From the IMG/VR virus record IMGVR_UViG_3300037420_000416: a stretch of 60,742 nt of DNA; one strand, given 5' to 3'. Within the stretch, counting starts at the first letter, position 1. Each line of letters opens with the position of its first letter. This document shows, piece by piece, positions 2,833 to 60,742 of the stretch. The position numbers and the translations under genes were made by a program. A model generated the notes under the pieces. The model was not told where the DNA came from. It made no database searches and saw only the letters and a program-made list of their open reading frames with translations. The stretch comes from a virus.

Positions 2833-3039
2833 CTACCAGTTCTGGATTTGGTTGCGGCGTGCGGTCAACTTCACGGCGCGGTTGCGTTCGTACAGTTCCA
2901 TCGGCACGATCTGGCTGCGCATGTTCATGAAGTGTTCTGCGCGCTTCTCGGCTTGGATCAGCTGGTGCTTGGTCCAGAGTAGGGCGGCCGGCTTGATGAT
3001 CTTGCGCACCAGGCGGCGAGCGATGCGGGCGGCGATCAT
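2833..3039 (-). CDS. Hypothetical early protein (68 aa)
   Basis: Track ORF 2833..3123. The internal ATG 3039 (MIAARIARRLV...) follows GAGGAA and overlaps the upstream stop as ATGA. Confidence 0.5.
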   Translation of the reverse strand: MIAARIARRLVRKIIKPAALLWTKHQLIQAEKRAEHFMNMRSQIVPMELYERNRAVKLTARRNQIQNW

Positions 3040-3218
3040 GGCGTTTCCTCGACCTTGTCGCCGGTCTTTTCGGTCGCGACGATCGCGCCCAGCCAAGTAG
3101 CGGCGAAGAGGAACCATCCCCATCCGGGTTTTCCCTCATACGCAAGATGGCTGGCAGAGAGTGCGCAGGCGATCGCAACAAGCATGCGTCCGACGACGAC
3201 CAGGGTTATTGGTTTCAT
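3036..3218 (-). CDS. Small membrane protein (60 aa)
   Basis: Track ORF with two hydrophobic segments (ITLVVVGRMLVAIACAL, WGWFLFAATWLGAIVA). It is ATGA-coupled on both sides. Confidence 0.55.
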   Translation of the reverse strand: MKPITLVVVGRMLVAIACALSASHLAYEGKPGWGWFLFAATWLGAIVATEKTGDKVEETP

Positions 3219-5484: not shown

Positions 5485-5634
5485 TCACAGGGTCTTGCGT
5501 GCTTTGCGCTCGACATCGGCGCGTTTTTCGGTGCGCTTTTGCTGGTCCTTGCGATCCAGCTTGTCGAAGGCGTCCAGGACCTGCCGCGCGTACCGCTTTG
5601 CGGCTAGGTCGATGACCTTTGCGGGCTTCTTCAT
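5485..5634 (-). CDS. Small basic protein (49 aa)
   Basis: Below the track cutoff. MKKPAKVIDLAAKRYARQVLDAFDKLDRKDQQKRTEKRADVERKARKTL. Confidence 0.35.
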   Translation of the reverse strand: MKKPAKVIDLAAKRYARQVLDAFDKLDRKDQQKRTEKRADVERKARKTL

Positions 5635-5636
5635 GG

Positions 5637-5915
5637 CTAGGCAGCGCGAAGGCATTCGGTTGCGCCTTCGCGTTTCGCGCTGCGGCCCATCGAGAGAACA
5701 GCATCGGCGGACACCTTGTAGTTCTTGCCCATGTAGTGCTGACGAAGCAGCTTAGAGGCGCAGATGACGCCAACGCTGATTGCTTCGCCGTCCTCGCCCT
5801 CAAGGACGACGGCGCGGGTCAGGTTCGTTTTGCCGCAGCAGTCGCACACCGGATAGTCGGACGTGCCGAGGACAAGGTATTTGGCGCCTTTGATCAGTTT
5901 CATCGTGGTGGTCAT
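5637..5915 (-). CDS. First gene of the leftward early operon (92 aa, Cys-containing)
   Basis: Track ORF with GGGAG 7 nt upstream of ATG 5915. It lies 38 nt downstream of the predicted PL start. Confidence 0.6.
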   Translation of the reverse strand: MTTTMKLIKGAKYLVLGTSDYPVCDCCGKTNLTRAVVLEGEDGEAISVGVICASKLLRQHYMGKNYKVSADAVLSMGRSAKREGATECLRAA

Positions 5916-5953
5916 GGCGGGCTCCCAGTTGGTTTCGTATGCGCTGCGTCGAT

Positions 5954-5990
5954 GGATTCATTAAACCACAGGTTGAATCCCGATTCAAGC
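5954..5990 (-). promoter_or_regulatory. PL-like promoter with OL operator
   Basis: The minus strand reads TTGAAT (5983-5988) - 17 nt - TTTAAT (5960-5965). The inverted repeat GGTTGAATcccgATTCAAGC (5971-5990) covers the -35 and spacer. The 25-nt block 5954-5978 matches the reverse complement of 8012-8036 at 24/25 positions. Confidence 0.7.
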
Positions 5991-6075
5991 GCAGTTTGAA
6001 AAAATTTCGCAAAAATCCATCACGACGTTTATGCGTAATGATTTATAAGAAGAAATCCCTAGATCGGAGGGACGT

Positions 6076-6098
6076 AAAAAAGCCGCGTCGTGCGCGGC
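6076..6098 (-). terminator. Rho-independent terminator closing the 174-aa gene unit
   Basis: On the minus strand, stem GCCGCG - 5-nt loop (CACGA) - CGCGGC is followed by TTTTTT. It lies between the stop at 6155 and PL. Confidence 0.7.
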
Positions 6099-6154
6099 GT
6101 GAAGGATGGGGTGTTCTGCTCAGGTCCTGGCAACCGTACGAGCAGGGACGTAGC

Positions 6155-6679
6155 CTAGTCAGGCAGTCGCCCCTCGCGTACACGGACATCGAGGACCGTT
6201 TTGCCATCCTTGGCCAAATCGCATTCGTAAATCACGGCCGTGTATGCGCCAAAGCCATTTTGGAACTCGGCCCGATCACCGACCATCGTGACGGCGCCTA
6301 TGGATTTGTCAGCCCAGCGGAAGCGGCTGAATTTCGGCTCAAGGGCGCTGTCAGTCCACTTCACGCTGTGCGTCGCGAGGCGTTCGATTGGACGTCTACA
6401 GTACATTCCAGCGCCCACGATTGCTTTGTCGCCCAGGCATTGCAAGTCGTCGACTGCGCACCCCGACGCCGCGGATTTACTGCTGCATGACGCTTGAAAG
6501 AGGGCGTAAGCTAGAGTCAAGAAGCAAACCCCCTGTACTATTGACAAGAGCGGTTTTAGTTTCGGCTTTGGTTTAACTTCTGGTGCCGCCGGCGCCATCT
6601 GCGGCGCACCGCAGTGCGGACAGGCCGTTGCGCTGGTGCTGATTTGAGTGCCGCATTCCTTGCAAGGTAACAGGGCCAT
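6155..6679 (-). CDS. Zinc-ribbon / single-TM / Cys-containing C-domain protein (174 aa), accessory gene in the rexAB position
   Basis: Track ORF with GGAGG before the ATG. N-terminus CKECGTQISTSATACPHCG, Pro/Lys linker, TM segment LLSIVQGVCFLTLAYALFQA, then a roughly 105-aa domain with 4 Cys. The local DNA is AT-rich. Confidence 0.7.
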   Translation of the reverse strand: MALLPCKECGTQISTSATACPHCGAPQMAPAAPEVKPKPKLKPLLSIVQGVCFLTLAYALFQASCSSKSAASGCAVDDLQCLGDKAIVGAGMYCRRPIERLATHSVKWTDSALEPKFSRFRWADKSIGAVTMVGDRAEFQNGFGAYTAVIYECDLAKDGKTVLDVRVREGRLPD

Positions 6680-6872
6680 CCTAGCCTCCGAGCATGGTTT
6701 CGAGAGCGTCTAAACCGCCTAACACGATGACTCCATGAGTGCGCCTTTCACTCATCAATACTACTCCCGAGCACAGTCGTACGTAGCACCGAAGTTACCA
6801 AAGTTGCATCGATCCAACACAGGTTTAGCGTTCTAAATTATGCTGTTGAAAAGCAGGTTCGATGAGGTACAC

Positions 6873-6892
6873 TACTGTTTATTCATACAGTG
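6873..6892. promoter_or_regulatory. SOS (LexA) box
   Basis: TACTGTTTATTCATACAGTG matches CTGT-N8-ACAG with TA flanks. It lies in the 325-bp spacer upstream of the 174-aa gene. Confidence 0.6.
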
Positions 6893-7004
6893 TTTCTTTG
6901 CAGTGCAATGCGTCATTTGTTACATGCAGAAACAATGATGCTGAAACTTCGTTTCCGTGGTGGCTAGACTTGATGCATGCATTTCAAAAAGGGCGTATTG
7001 CATC

Positions 7005-7235
7005 TCAACTACGCAAAAGGGTAAGTACTTGGCGCAACATCATTTTTAGCTCTTCATTCTGCTTGGTAATTTCCTCAAGCAGCGTGGTGTTTAGCCTGGA
7101 CAGCATCTCATCATTAAGCGAGTGCTCGTTCTCTTTCGCGGCCTTGGTCAGGGCCTGGTGGAGCTCAGGCGGAATGCGAATGGCGGTCTTAACGTAAGTC
7201 TGCTGTTTTGACTGTTGAATGGGCGGTTTTGTCAT
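7005..7235 (-). CDS. Arc/MetJ-type ribbon-helix-helix DNA-binding protein (76 aa)
   Basis: Track ORF. ...YVKTAIRIPPELHQALTKAAKENEHSLNDEMLSRLNTTL... fits the Arc-like beta-strand/helix/helix pattern, followed by a coiled-coil tail. Confidence 0.65.
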   Translation of the reverse strand: MTKPPIQQSKQQTYVKTAIRIPPELHQALTKAAKENEHSLNDEMLSRLNTTLLEEITKQNEELKMMLRQVLTLLRS

Positions 7236-7409
7236 CGCCCGATTTTTTCATGTTGCTTCAGACTCACAGTCGATACGCCTTCAAACTGAAAGCATCTGTT
7301 TCGTGACAATTGGTGAGTATTAATGTTTCATGGAAGTGTGATACTGAGTACAGTGTAAGAGTGTTCCTACACACGAGAGTTTTTATCAACTTGTTAGTTA
7401 AGAGGCGCC

Positions 7410-7601
7410 ATGAATAAGATGAGGGCAAGCACCCCAACGGAGACATGCGGCACCGCTGTGACACCACTCACAGATGAAGAGGCTCACATCATTCGGCGCC
7501 TGCGACTCATGCGCGCGTCGGCCAGGAAGATGATTTTTGATCTGACTGCGGAGTACGCTCGTGATTTTCCGGACCCAGAACGGTTCGCGAGCACCACTTA
7601 A
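7410..7601 (+). CDS. Hypothetical 63-aa protein, divergent from the Arc-like gene
   Basis: Track ORF with AGAGG 5 nt before the ATG. Its stop overlaps the cI-like stop (convergent TTAA at 7598-7601). Confidence 0.5.
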   Translation: MNKMRASTPTETCGTAVTPLTDEEAHIIRRLRLMRASARKMIFDLTAEYARDFPDPERFASTT

Positions 7602-7954
7602 GATTCTGTGGACGGGGATGCCTGCGGAGCCACGCGGGCAGCCCCCTTAAGCATCAGCTGGCCTTCATGGCTGCATTGGCGATACAGCTCCAGCATCTCC
7701 TTCTCATCCGCATTCAAGCGCTCAAGCCAGGTTCGCTCCGGACTGGCCGGAGCCCCCTCTACCTGTAAAAGCTGATCGGTCGACAGGCCAAGAGCATCAG
7801 CAACGACCGGCACGCGATCCCTCGCAATCTTCCCTGTCTGTGTCCATTTCGATACGGCGGCAATAGACACGCCGGCCTTCTCGGCCAGCCATGCCTGGTT
7901 GCGCTCTAGCTCCTTCAGTCTAGTCTTTATAACTTTGGCAATTTTTGTGCTCAT
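7598..7954 (-). CDS. cI: CI-like prophage repressor, XRE-family HTH, no S24 peptidase domain (118 aa)
   Basis: Track ORF. HTH segment LKELERNQAWLAEKAGVSIAAVSKWTQTGKIARDRVPVVADALGLS. It is divergent from the cro-like gene across an operator-rich 82-bp spacer. The C-terminal 50 aa show no Ser/Lys protease motif. Confidence 0.8.
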   Translation of the reverse strand: MSTKIAKVIKTRLKELERNQAWLAEKAGVSIAAVSKWTQTGKIARDRVPVVADALGLSTDQLLQVEGAPASPERTWLERLNADEKEMLELYRQCSHEGQLMLKGAARVAPQASPSTES

Positions 7955-8036
7955 GGCGGCAAGTTTGGGTTGAATTCAACGAAAACTCAAGAAATCTGCG
8001 GTTGAATTTCAATTCAACCTGTGGTTAAATGAATCC
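7955..8036. promoter_or_regulatory. OR region: PR, PRM-like promoter and two operators
   Basis: PR on the plus strand is TTGAAT (8002-8007) - 17 nt - TTAAAT (8025-8030). The operators are GTTGAATTCAAC (7969-7980, a perfect palindrome) and GGTTGAATttcaATTCAACC (8000-8019). A weak leftward promoter, TTGAGT (7985-7990) - 17 nt - CAAACT (7962-7967), lies 7 nt from the cI ATG. Confidence 0.75.
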
Positions 8037-8264
8037 ATGAGACCTAAGACCACAACCCCACTAGAACGTGCGATCAGCCTTGTTGGTGGCGTCGCCAACC
8101 TCGCTGCCTCATGCCGCGTATCCGTCCAGGCCGTCTACAAGTGGCTGAAGAAGGGGTATCCGCCGGTCGATCGCTGCCAATCAGTCGAGAAGGCAGTCGC
8201 AGGGCAGGTAACACGGTTCGAGCTCCTTGCGCCCGCCTTCAAAACGAAGCGCAAGTCGAAGTAG
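8037..8264 (+). CDS. cro: Cro-like / YdaS-type HTH regulator (75 aa)
   Basis: Track ORF. LERAISLVGGVANLAASCRVSVQAVYKWLKKGYPP is a Cro/YdaS-like HTH. It is the first gene of the rightward operon, with no SD, and the ATG lies 7 nt after the PR -10. Confidence 0.75.
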   Translation: MRPKTTTPLERAISLVGGVANLAASCRVSVQAVYKWLKKGYPPVDRCQSVEKAVAGQVTRFELLAPAFKTKRKSK

Positions 8265-8366
8265 CAGTTCCAGCAGTCCCGCAACACGTTCCCAAGAAGA
8301 CCAGTACCAGAAGTGCCAGGCAGTAGCAGTCACCAATCCTTGTAGCACCGCTTGATAGGAGTAGTG

Positions 8367-8624
8367 ATGAAGAGCAGGAAGAACGTAGTTGTAAAGGCTT
8401 TGTTCAGCGTCGACCAGTTCGTGGCGCTGGATGAAGAGTGCACTGATGCAGACGTCTCACATAGCGAGCTCCTGCGCGAGTTGTCGATGGAGTGGGTCAG
8501 ACAGCGTCAGTCTACTAAAGCCGAAAGCCAGGGTAAATGGGCAATCAGTGGCCAGAAGATGGCCATACCGAGTGCTAACTCCCGGGTGAATTTCGGCGTC
8601 GCTCCGGTGCGATTACGGGTTTGA
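8367..8624 (+). CDS. Putative ribbon-helix-helix protein (85 aa), possible cII analogue
   Basis: Track ORF 8352..8624 with ATG 8367 after GGAG. VVVKALFSVDQFVALDEECTDADVSHSELLRELSMEW fits an RHH strand/helix/helix pattern. The function is inferred from position only. Confidence 0.45.
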   Translation: MKSRKNVVVKALFSVDQFVALDEECTDADVSHSELLRELSMEWVRQRQSTKAESQGKWAISGQKMAIPSANSRVNFGVAPVRLRV

Positions 8625-8752
8625 CGACGCTACCTACACATGGACGGATCGCCGGGAATTTTCGTAAGCGAGAACAGGCGAGAACAGGTAGATGACAAAA
8701 CGGACGGCCCGCCGCCGTGCGGGCCATAAGTCCAGAGAGAACTAGGGGAATC

Positions 8753-52017: not shown

Positions 52018-52037
52018 TACTGTTCAAATGTACAGCA
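52018..52037. promoter_or_regulatory. SOS (LexA) box overlapping the -10 and start codon of the 96-aa gene
   Basis: TACTGTTCAAATGTACAGCA matches CTGT-N8-ACAG. TATACT at 52016-52021 and ATG at 52028 give a leaderless geometry. Confidence 0.6.
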
Positions 52038-52318
52038 TCGTCAAACGACTTCGACAGCGCGGCCGACGCCTGGCAGACCGCGAAATCTCCGCCAGCGCCG
52101 GCGTGCGCGGGGAGCTCTCTGTCGCGATCGTCGGCCACCAGACCGAGGCGAAGCTGTACGATCCGAACGACCAGCAGCGTCGCCCGCTAATCCCGGAACT
52201 GCGCGGCGCCCAACTGATCACGATGACAGCCACCGGCATGCTGTTCTATGGCACGGAGCAGGGGCCAGACGGCGCCGAATACGTACAGGAATGGTCGGTA
52301 CGGCTGGCCACAGACTAG
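52028..52318 (+). CDS. 96-aa protein under the SOS box; candidate antirepressor
   Basis: Track ORF with balanced composition. It is the last gene before attP. The function is inference only. Confidence 0.5.
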   Translation: MYSIVKRLRQRGRRLADREISASAGVRGELSVAIVGHQTEAKLYDPNDQQRRPLIPELRGAQLITMTATGMLFYGTEQGPDGAEYVQEWSVRLATD

Positions 52319-52549: not shown

Positions 52550-53647
52550 TTAATGCTCGATCACCTGCCAATCACCTCTGAGATCATGATACTTGTCGGT
52601 CATGGCGGCGGTCTTATGACCCAACATCGATTGGGCGAACGCGGCGCCGAACTGCTCACGATACAGCCGCTCCGACAAGCTCCGGATCTCATGGAAGGTT
52701 GGTGGTGTGCGACCTTCGGCCGCCTTAATGCCCGCCGCCTTGCGGGCGCTCTGGAAGGCGTTCGACAGACCGTTGCTCGTCACCCGATCGCCAGGCTTTG
52801 CTGATCCCTGGTGCTCGACGTGGTGCACAAGGTACTGTGTTGTGATGAGGTCGCGGCATGCCTGAACGGCTTCGCCGATCGATACACCTACCTTATCTAG
52901 CCGGATCTCGCCGCTTAGCCGAAGCTTCACGGTCCCATTGCTCTTGCCTTGGGTGATGTGCAAATATCCTTCGCGCCAGTCCGAAAACTTCAGGCTCGCG
53001 ATGTCGTCGCGGCGCTGAGCAGTGGTTAGGGCGAGATACATCGCGCGCTGGAGCCACTTCGGCGCCTTGGCGTGGATCGCATGGAACTGGTCGAGCGAAA
53101 GGCGCTCGCGCGTCACCTGCGGCCTCGGCGCCCTGGTTGCTGATACCGGATTGCGTCCGACCTCAATCAAGCCTTGTGTCTCGGCCCAGCGGAATACGTC
53201 GCTCATGCGCGTTCGCACCGCGTTGGCGGTCGCCTTGCCACTTTCCTTTTCCACGTCCTCCAGAAACCTCGCCACGTGAGCCGTAGAGATATCCTGCAGG
53301 CGCCGCTTGCCGATATCCGCCTCGGCCATGCGCTTGACGTACATCGTGCAGGAGCGAATCGTATTGTCGCGCGGCTTCTTCTTCTCAAGCCACAATTCCT
53401 TGTACACCGGCAGCCATCCTTCCAGGGTGTACTCCGTCTTGCCCATCACCCAGTCGACGAGAGAGGAGGGCTTGCGCGTTGCCAGCGCGGCGTTCGCGGC
53501 GCGCGCTTCCTGCACGGCATGCGCCTTGTCCCGGCCAAGCCCTTTTTGCGTTTTCTCCACCGGATTGCGGTAATAGAAATACCCCGCCGGGTTCTGGTAC
53601 AGGTTCGGCGGCAGGGCGCGATTCTTGGCAAGTCGTCGACGTCCCAT
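52550..53647 (-). CDS. int: Tyrosine integrase (365 aa)
   Basis: Track ORF. ...ALTTAQRRDDI..., FHEIRSL, MLGHKTAAMTDKYH supply the R...HxxR...Y catalytic signature. Confidence 0.92.
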   Translation of the reverse strand: MGRRRLAKNRALPPNLYQNPAGYFYYRNPVEKTQKGLGRDKAHAVQEARAANAALATRKPSSLVDWVMGKTEYTLEGWLPVYKELWLEKKKPRDNTIRSCTMYVKRMAEADIGKRRLQDISTAHVARFLEDVEKESGKATANAVRTRMSDVFRWAETQGLIEVGRNPVSATRAPRPQVTRERLSLDQFHAIHAKAPKWLQRAMYLALTTAQRRDDIASLKFSDWREGYLHITQGKSNGTVKLRLSGEIRLDKVGVSIGEAVQACRDLITTQYLVHHVEHQGSAKPGDRVTSNGLSNAFQSARKAAGIKAAEGRTPPTFHEIRSLSERLYREQFGAAFAQSMLGHKTAAMTDKYHDLRGDWQVIEH

Positions 53648-53648
53648 C

Positions 53649-53834
53649 TCAGTCCGCCACGTACTGTGCGTCCCGCTTTACCTGCCAGGACTTGCCGATC
53701 TTCTTTGGTTGCGGTTGAATCCGTCCATCATGCACCCAGCGGAGCAGGGTGTTCTCGTGCGGAATCTTCGAGAACATCAAAGCCGCCCACTCTCGCAGGG
53801 TGACGTAACGCGATTGAATTTGCTTCTCTTGCAT
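53649..53834 (-). CDS. xis: Excisionase (61 aa)
   Basis: Track ORF. YVTLREWAALMFSKIPHENTLLRWVHDGRIQPQPKKIGKSWQV is lambda-Xis-like. It lies directly upstream of int. Confidence 0.8.
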   Translation of the reverse strand: MQEKQIQSRYVTLREWAALMFSKIPHENTLLRWVHDGRIQPQPKKIGKSWQVKRDAQYVAD

Positions 53835-60636: not shown

Positions 60637-60742
60637 GCTGCCACCTCATTGGCTTGGACTGCGTTGATGTGACGGACCAGGGCGGCACAGATTGCCGGGA
60701 AATCCGACTCGTGATACAGCTTGGCCGACTTGTCGGTGGCCG
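60633..60742 (-). CDS. 3' end of the YqaJ-like exonuclease gene (the same ORF as 1..1760, via the circular junction)
   Basis: Stop TGA at 60633-60635. 60652-60742 duplicates 1-91. The frame is continuous (1779 nt in total). Confidence 0.8.
   Translation of the reverse strand, partial: ATDKSAKLYHESDFPAICAALVRHINAVQANEVAA
60652..60742. repeat. Terminal direct repeat, copy 2 (identical to 1-91)
   Basis: Same reading as for copy 1. Confidence 0.95.

Follow-up and report, generated by a model that had tools for sequence, protein, structure and literature searches.

The immunity region of a lambda-like temperate phage, contained in the 60,742-nucleotide (nt) record IMGVR_UViG_3300037420_000416 of IMG/VR (the whole stretch is referred to here as the window), carries a LexA box between the early leftward promoter PL and the repressor gene. 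Comparison with related phages assigns this box to a conserved regulatory backbone, composed of a short non-cleavable repressor, a 63-amino-acid (aa) gene, a ribbon-helix-helix (RHH) regulator gene with its palindrome, the LexA box with an adjoining heptamer, and a terminator. By the same comparison, the neighbouring gene for a 174-aa membrane protein is one of several interchangeable cargoes directed to the cell envelope. We propose, with roughly even confidence, that the backbone is a LexA-gated switch, in which rightward antisense transcription would lead to a 63-aa antirepressor, with a possible leftward arm for the cargo. The coordinates of the features are collected in Table 1.

Table 1. 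Features of the immunity region and of the second LexA box in the window
Feature	Position	Strand	Remarks
OL/PL operator block, left boundary of the immunity region	5952-5997	.	inverted repeat of 7993-8038
Intrinsic terminator GCCGCGCACGACGCGGC followed by TTTTTT, predicted to end leftward transcripts before PL	6076-6098	-	6-bp all-GC stem
Exchangeable cargo slot (cassette): 174-aa gene and leader	6105-6866	-	homology to L018-L020 lost exactly here
174-aa cargo protein with a cytoplasmic zinc ribbon, a single membrane helix and a 4-Cys α+β (NTF2-like) domain in the periplasm	6155-6679	-	
Candidate rightward SOS promoter TTGAAA-16-TACACT	6846-6873	+	consensus scan, bit score, match in L033
Symmetric -10 heptamer, TACACTA/TAGTGTA on opposite strands	6868-6874	.	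adjoins the LexA box
LexA box TACTGTTTATTCATACAGTG	6873-6892	.	fits CTGT-N8-ACAG; ~113 bp past the RHH stop codon
Spacer with conserved blocks GTTACA, GAAACAAT, TAGACT	6893-7004	.	kept in 11 loci
76-aa Arc/Mnt/AmrZ-type RHH regulator with C-terminal helix (NEELKMMLRQVL)	7005-7235	-	Pfam and PDB profile matches
Terminator-like hairpin and T-run covering the RHH start codon	7220-7249	+	terminator scan; A/T-run conserved in relatives
Palindrome GCCTTCAAACTGAAAGC, candidate operator at the RHH promoter	7277-7293	.	contains TTCA-N5-TGAA
Second palindrome GTGTAAGAGTGTTCCTACAC, overlying the 63-aa gene's candidate promoter and start	7353-7372	.	kept in the window, L018, L013-L016
63-aa helical-hairpin gene, convergent with the repressor gene	7410-7601	+	Shine-Dalgarno AAGAGG, codon pattern, conservation
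118-aa cI-like repressor, helix-turn-helix only, without S24 peptidase domain	7598-7954	-	profile searches
OR/PR operator block, right boundary of the immunity region	7993-8038	.	inverted repeat of 5952-5997
Second LexA box TACTGTTCAAATGTACAGCA	52018-52037	.	consensus; overlaps the ATG of the 96-aa open reading frame, just upstream of attP/int
96-aa open reading frame	52028-52318		TATACT as possible -10

The window represents a circularly closed phage genome of 60,651 bp (60.65 kb), its ends (1-91 and 60652-60742) being identical over 91 nt, and the phage is lambda-like and temperate, with int and xis at 52550-53834. The OL/PL and OR/PR blocks form a 46-nt inverted repeat with 85% complementarity, and 5952-8038 is best explained as the immunity region of such a phage with a beta-proteobacterial (Burkholderiales-like) host. 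A first-pass annotation had described 6076-7601 as a single AT-rich accessory island in the position that rexAB occupies in lambda. The location between PL and the repressor gene is borne out, and the elements listed for the island (the 63-aa open reading frame (ORF), an Arc-type RHH gene, the LexA box, the 174-aa protein and the terminator) are all present at the positions given for them. The compositional claim holds in part: only the RHH gene and the non-coding spacers have a low GC content (0.41-0.49), and the 174-aa gene, at 0.58, is close to the whole genome (0.60). No close relative of 5900-8300 was found among cultured phages by megablast, tblastn with the RHH protein returned no match in 50,697 phage records, and GTDB representative genomes likewise yielded none.

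The metagenomic contigs L018-L021 have cro and the repressor, 63-aa and RHH genes in common with the window. L018-L020 share 85% DNA identity with the window from position 6867, at the edge of the -10 element and the LexA box, through cro. In these contigs homology resumes across PL and the terminator (block 5888-6104 in the comparison with L018), and between the two blocks a gene for a 187-aa lipoprotein replaces the 174-aa gene. The terminator lies within this conserved block and is therefore part of the backbone. Compared with L033, the variable part of the slot is about 6105-6821. The more distant IMG/VR phages all keep the order of short repressor, convergent small gene and divergent RHH gene. 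The accessory portion of the supposed island is thus reduced to about 6105-6866, the 63-aa gene, RHH gene, box and terminator being backbone in the sister phages.

The content of the slot past the RHH gene differs between phages. A LexA box is followed by a lipoprotein of ~100 aa in L013, L014, L016 and L028, in L015 and L031 by the small periplasmic domain of these lipoproteins, anchored there through a zinc ribbon and a membrane helix, by a different zinc-ribbon membrane protein in L029, and by a truncated cargo remnant in L030; in L033 the box is present and there is no cargo before PL, and L032 and L035 retain the RHH/small-gene pair and have no box. The box was thus found in 11 of the 13 loci with the RHH/63-aa pair, among them the cargo-less L033 and the truncated-cargo L030, and at none of 18 other loci of the 174-aa family. 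It tracks the RHH/63-aa pair, not the 174-aa family, and we therefore assign it to the RHH/63-aa backbone. This finding does not favour the earlier idea that SOS control of a membrane effector is the point of the island, nor does the orientation of the best promoter at the box, which points away from the 174-aa gene.

The LexA box, noted in the first-pass annotation as near-consensus within a 325-bp spacer, does fit CTGT-N8-ACAG. A search of the whole window for ACTGT-N8-ACAG returned two sites only (three strand matches), with 0.28 expected from shuffled sequences, and the position of the box in the immunity region is kept in 11 loci, at about 110-150 bp past the RHH stop codon. A consensus scan of 5600-8700 identified TTGAAA-16-TACACT as the sole promoter-like site, with a score of 12.4 bits (shuffles, 6.8 ± 2.4), and the same -35, spacing and -10 are present in L033 and the window despite diverged spacers. 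The sequence AGTGTA directly after the LexA box is identical in 10 of the 11 loci (AGTTTA in L015). The strand that does not encode the RHH protein accordingly has a -10 of TACACT (TAAACT in L015), which is top-scoring at a fixed offset in 9 of the 11. The summed promoter score is 96.6 bits on this strand and 77.7 bits on the other. LexA is predicted to bind at 6873-6892, and the promoter that it would control is best read as rightward.

On the RHH strand the same heptamer can be read as a leftward promoter, with TAGTGT as its -10, the LexA box within its spacer and nnGAAA at -35 (nnGAAA-18-TAGTGT). The first-pass reading, reduced to its core, would have the box drive this promoter only. The cargo would then be an SOS-induced envelope effector, which might for example block a receptor or exclude superinfecting phages once immunity collapses, and the Arc-like and 63-aa genes would form an unrelated local switch. 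The arrangement of the slot is consistent with this: intact cargoes all lie on the RHH strand directly past the box and are all envelope-targeted, by a lipobox or by a zinc ribbon and membrane helix; the cassette breaks off just past the -10, so nnGAAA-18-TAGTGT is wholly within the backbone; the scan of 5600-8700 found no other promoter-like site upstream of the 174-aa gene; and the conserved terminator closes the slot. However, the leftward promoter is weaker and less regular, with a -10 that matches the consensus at three of six positions and a -35 that is good in two to three of the 11 loci, and the box and heptamer remain where the cargo is missing or truncated (L033 and L030), and the 174-aa family has no adjacent box at any of 18 other loci. 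We consider control of the cargo alone doubtful.

The heptamer also raises the possibility that both directions are used. In bacterial bidirectional promoters -7T and -11A pair reciprocally across the strands (PMC10268837), and TAGTGTA has this sigma-70 geometry, the -11A/-7T of both strands being in reciprocal register. Given this symmetric geometry, one LexA dimer could close both promoter arms, and leftward expression of the cargo becomes possible because the -10 is symmetric. In its fullest form, one LexA operator would gate a bidirectional promoter, of which one arm would silence the Mnt-like repressor by antisense transcription and induce a new group of 53-88-aa helical-hairpin antirepressors, and the other would supply an SOS-timed cargo. 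We regard this full version as improbable; if true, it would combine induction and cargo expression in a compact circuit that has not been described in cultured phages. As in the bidirectional promoters described previously (Warman et al. 2021; PMC10268837), TAGTGTA/TACACTA has the -11A/-7T register, but the arms in the window would share a single LexA operator, and asymmetrically, since it would sit within the spacer of one arm and cover the start site of the opposite arm. Two such arms would be expected to start transcription divergently, about 18 bp apart.

Further palindromes occur near the rightward -35. The palindrome TTTAGCGTTCTAAA at 6824-6837, at or upstream of the -35, is common to the window and L033, and in L013-L016 and L028-L030 the palindrome AATCTAGTAGATT is located about 30 bp beyond the LexA box, also at or upstream of the -35. 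These palindromes may be sites of a second regulator.

The 76-aa product of the RHH gene belongs to the RHH superfamily, scoring 24.0 bits against Pfam Arc (cut-off 20.4) and 26.3 bits against HicB (cut-off 21), and a profile of its family matches AmrZ in the PDB (3.7e-5) and also Arc and Mnt. Its homologues share 45-93% identity in the sister phages and 45-68% in the more distant IMG/VR phages. All 10 loci compared, distant ones included, have the motif TTCA-N5-TGAA some 45-60 bp ahead of the start codon of the RHH gene, and the second palindrome overlies the best candidate for a 63-aa gene promoter. With these two conserved palindromes as predicted operators, the Arc-like protein probably represses both itself and the 63-aa gene.

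The best Pfam and PHROG matches of the RHH protein include HicB, FitA antitoxin RHH domains and ParG-like 'partition' families, which would suit a toxin-antitoxin or partition module formed by the Arc-like gene and its neighbour, with the LexA-like palindrome being incidental. We give this explanation very little credence. No toxin-like or ParA-like operon partner is present, the 63-aa gene being divergent and the downstream gene variable or absent, and the toxin-antitoxin reading of the RHH gene is rejected on this gene order; in addition, the palindrome and its flanks are conserved in 11 loci, and PADLOC gave no meaningful match.

The spacer between the 174-aa and RHH genes (6680-7004, 325 bp) contains the blocks GTTACA, GAAACAAT and TAGA(C/A)T, which are conserved across 11 loci without base-pair covariation. 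A conserved RNA structure in the interval from the LexA box to the stop codon of the RHH gene was considered and rejected, as RNAalifold recovered the LexA palindrome only, with no covarying pairs and a fold z-score of -1.3; an Rfam search of this spacer gave no match. A small peptide encoded in the same interval was also rejected, the small ORFs there not being conserved. The TAGACT/TAGAAT block could be a further -10 reading into the RHH gene.

The 118-aa repressor gives weak helix-turn-helix (HTH) matches in Pfam and PHROGs and weak DicA/RstR-type matches in NCBIfam, the best being DicA (2.5e-6, below the cut-off). It has no S24 autocleavage domain, as is typical of LexA-antirepressor systems, and the same is true of the sister phages; the repressors of all compared loci are 118-210 aa in length and, where scanned, have HTH matches only. 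Short Gifsy-type repressors are relieved by small antirepressors (PMC3121763), and DicA-type repression is likewise relieved by a small antirepressor (PMC10448788). Since the repressors of this group are short and HTH-only, an antirepressor would be needed for their relief. The longest of them, the 210-aa repressor of L029 (1480-2112), owes its size to a tandem duplication of the C-terminal motif (LQWVS..ALLSEYRR..GKNSLLVMA.ALP).

The gene for the 63-aa protein appears in every relative, and its pattern of substitution identifies it as a genuine conserved gene: between the window and L018, at 85% DNA identity, the differences are 6/5/15 by codon position, the third dominating. In all relatives its family, of 53-88 aa, is flanked by the repressor gene on one side and the RHH gene on the other. 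As reported in the first-pass annotation, the ORF converges with the repressor gene, and their stop codons overlap in TTAA (7598-7601). The structure model has a disordered N-terminus followed by helices at residues 22-33 and 36-50, with a predicted local distance difference test score (pLDDT) of 93-97 over residues 21-50. Its position and conservation make the 63-aa protein a candidate antirepressor. The gene in the window overlaps the repressor gene by 4 nt only, compared with L013-type phages, in which the 63-aa-like gene (3502-3765 in L013, and in the same place in L014-L016 and L028-L031) has 86-88 codons and an antisense overlap of ~110 nt with the 3' end of the repressor gene.

We propose the following mechanism for the LexA-gated switch. 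In a lysogen, host LexA on the box would shut the promoter or promoters that use the heptamer. DNA damage would lead to cleavage of LexA, upon which the rightward promoter TTGAAA-16-TACACT would fire and produce antisense transcription through the Arc-like gene towards the 63-aa gene. This would lower the level of the Arc-like repressor and raise that of the 63-aa protein, either by derepression or by direct read-in. The 63-aa protein would in turn neutralise the non-cleavable repressor, an effect to which transcription converging on the repressor gene may contribute. The weaker leftward arm, with the LexA box in its spacer, may co-express the cargo, its transcript stopping at the conserved terminator.

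Several observations weigh against this switch. The rightward -35 is poor in L018 and L031 (TGGCGT/GTGGCG) and merely moderate in seven other loci, and the homology break at the -10 edge fits an all-backbone leftward promoter (-35, box and -10) at least as well. L032 and L035 hold the RHH/63-aa pair without any LexA box. The candidate rightward promoter reads towards the 63-aa gene from 530 nt upstream, and the terminator-like hairpin at 7220-7249 lies between them; this plus-strand hairpin could end a rightward antisense RNA of ~370 nt, and could thereby halt rightward transcripts short of the 63-aa gene. Profile searches, which placed the 76-aa protein as an RHH regulator and the 174-aa protein as a zinc-ribbon protein, gave no family match for the 63-aa protein: there was none in Pfam, PHROGs, NCBIfam, PDB sequences or PDB folds, and no detectable relation to antirepressors. 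A likeness of the 63-aa protein to the C-terminus of the repressor, suggestive by eye, was discarded as not significant (hhalign probability 0.4%, E 0.14).

A further point against the 63-aa protein as antirepressor is that a second gene is an equally good candidate. The other LexA box of the window overlaps the ATG of a 96-aa ORF, and this layout, together with TATACT as a possible -10, suggests a leaderless mRNA. The 96-aa protein could be the real SOS antirepressor, in which case the box in the immunity region would tune the Arc-like gene or the cargo and be dispensable for induction. All five related phages that were examined keep the second box, and in G001, G003 and G005, as in the window, it lies across the ATG of a gene for a homologous protein of ~100 aa; the 39 homologues of the 96-aa protein all come from contigs that are phage-sized or metagenomic, and the size of the protein is near that of known small antirepressors (PMC3121763). 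However, G002 and G004 have the second box and no 96-aa homologue, the sole match of the protein is a weak one to phrog_5560, a family of unknown function, and this explanation does not account for conservation of the RHH-side box in a cargo-less phage. On balance we think it possible, if somewhat unlikely, that the 96-aa protein takes the place of the proposed switch in induction.

The principle of the proposed switch is already known from LexA-controlled antirepression, RHH switches and morons, and it is the layout and the proteins that differ from Gifsy, DicA/Rem and P22 immI. With LexA-controlled antirepressors the region shares a short repressor without an autocleavage domain, a LexA box on phage DNA and a small protein as the proposed link (Gifsy: PMC3121763). 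It differs in that its box is inside the immunity region, on the 3' side of the RHH gene, that its best promoter reads antisense through the RHH gene, and that its candidate antirepressor has no sequence relation to theirs and is encoded convergently to the repressor gene. In Gifsy (gfoA/gftA) the LexA box is instead beside a dinI homologue, far from the repressor. We take the p95-tum system of coliphage 186 and antC of N15 to be comparable LexA-controlled antirepressor induction systems. The Qin prophage pair DicA/Rem is comparable in that DicA is the best NCBIfam match of the 118-aa repressor, and DicA too is relieved by a small prophage-encoded antirepressor (PMC10448788), but the layout in the window is different.

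The likeness to P22 immI (mnt / Pmnt-Pant / arc / sar / ant) pointed out in the first-pass annotation stands in one respect: a Mnt-like RHH repressor with a C-terminal helix is divergent from a small gene that would oppose the main repressor. Antisense transcription forms part of the P22 logic and would form part of the one proposed here, and both regions tolerate neighbouring cargo genes. It fails in that the regulated unit of the window contains no Ant-family protein and no second RHH gene. Moreover, the window has a LexA input, which P22 immI does not have, and its module is placed between PL and the repressor gene, whereas that of P22 is in the late region. As with lambda rexAB and other morons, the 174-aa gene occupies the interval from repressor to PL, is followed by a terminator before PL and is exchanged or absent in close relatives, collinear sister phages showing the slot in seven states, in which the gene is present, missing or replaced. 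Unlike these, it is a single envelope protein of ordinary GC content, its flanking promoter and terminator are elements of the backbone and not of the cassette, and no ORF in 6076-7601 matched RexA or RexB in Pfam or PHROG searches.

Many temperate phages, uncultured ones especially, have short repressors incapable of self-cleavage, while DNA-damage sensing by phages of this kind is known for a few enterobacterial models. The module described here offers a testable circuit for a group of beta-proteobacterial lambda-like phages, its candidate parts being the LexA box, the Mnt-like RHH protein, the 63-aa protein and the rival 96-aa protein. For annotation, it illustrates that an apparent rexAB-type island can consist largely of regulatory backbone, with true cargo confined to a single slot. 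This slot repeatedly captures envelope proteins, which may be SOS-timed, and so bears on superinfection exclusion and lysogenic conversion.

The cargo protein of the window agrees with its earlier description as a zinc ribbon, one transmembrane helix and a 4-Cys outer domain. Pfam Zn_Ribbon_1 matches residues 6-26 (26.5 bits, cut-off 25), and the protein matches phrog_13160 (2e-20). The AlphaFold model (pLDDT 84) has a helix at residues 45-63 and a C-terminal domain that forms an α+β cone with pLDDT >90. In 20 homologues C81, C94 and C153 are invariant and C74 is nearly so. Because lysines precede the helix and the four conserved Cys follow it, the protein is predicted to have its N-terminus inside and its C-terminus outside. 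A fold search against the PDB gave no match at E ≤ 0.001, the weak matches being consistently NTF2/SnoaL-like, and a BFVD search gave weak matches that included actinophage lipoproteins and membrane proteins. Matches to PADLOC defence profiles were at chance level only (E about 0.01) and lend nothing to the exclusion, abortive-infection or lysis-timing function suggested in the first-pass annotation. Of 274 homologues, most are from Burkholderiales by source name; in Achromobacter prophages, which are unrelated, the homologue is found in the same gap between PL or the early left genes and the repressor, next to a repressor that has an S24 domain. From its position and localisation, our guess is that the protein acts as an envelope-level lysogenic conversion or exclusion factor.

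Two observations concern the corresponding positions in other phages. In L032, which has neither LexA box nor cargo, the next gene past the RHH gene (2833-3195, 120 aa) is again HTH and repressor-like, and has the same LLxLYR motif at its C-terminus as the repressor. Among the cargoes, the same 2-Cys periplasmic domain (KRACAEAIQ...VCAGLEMNGVP) is encoded at 4541-4870 in L015, at 3126-3458 in L031 and at 4453-4752 in L013 on different anchors, its N-terminal anchor having been swapped so that it is a lipobox in some phages and a zinc ribbon with a membrane helix in others.

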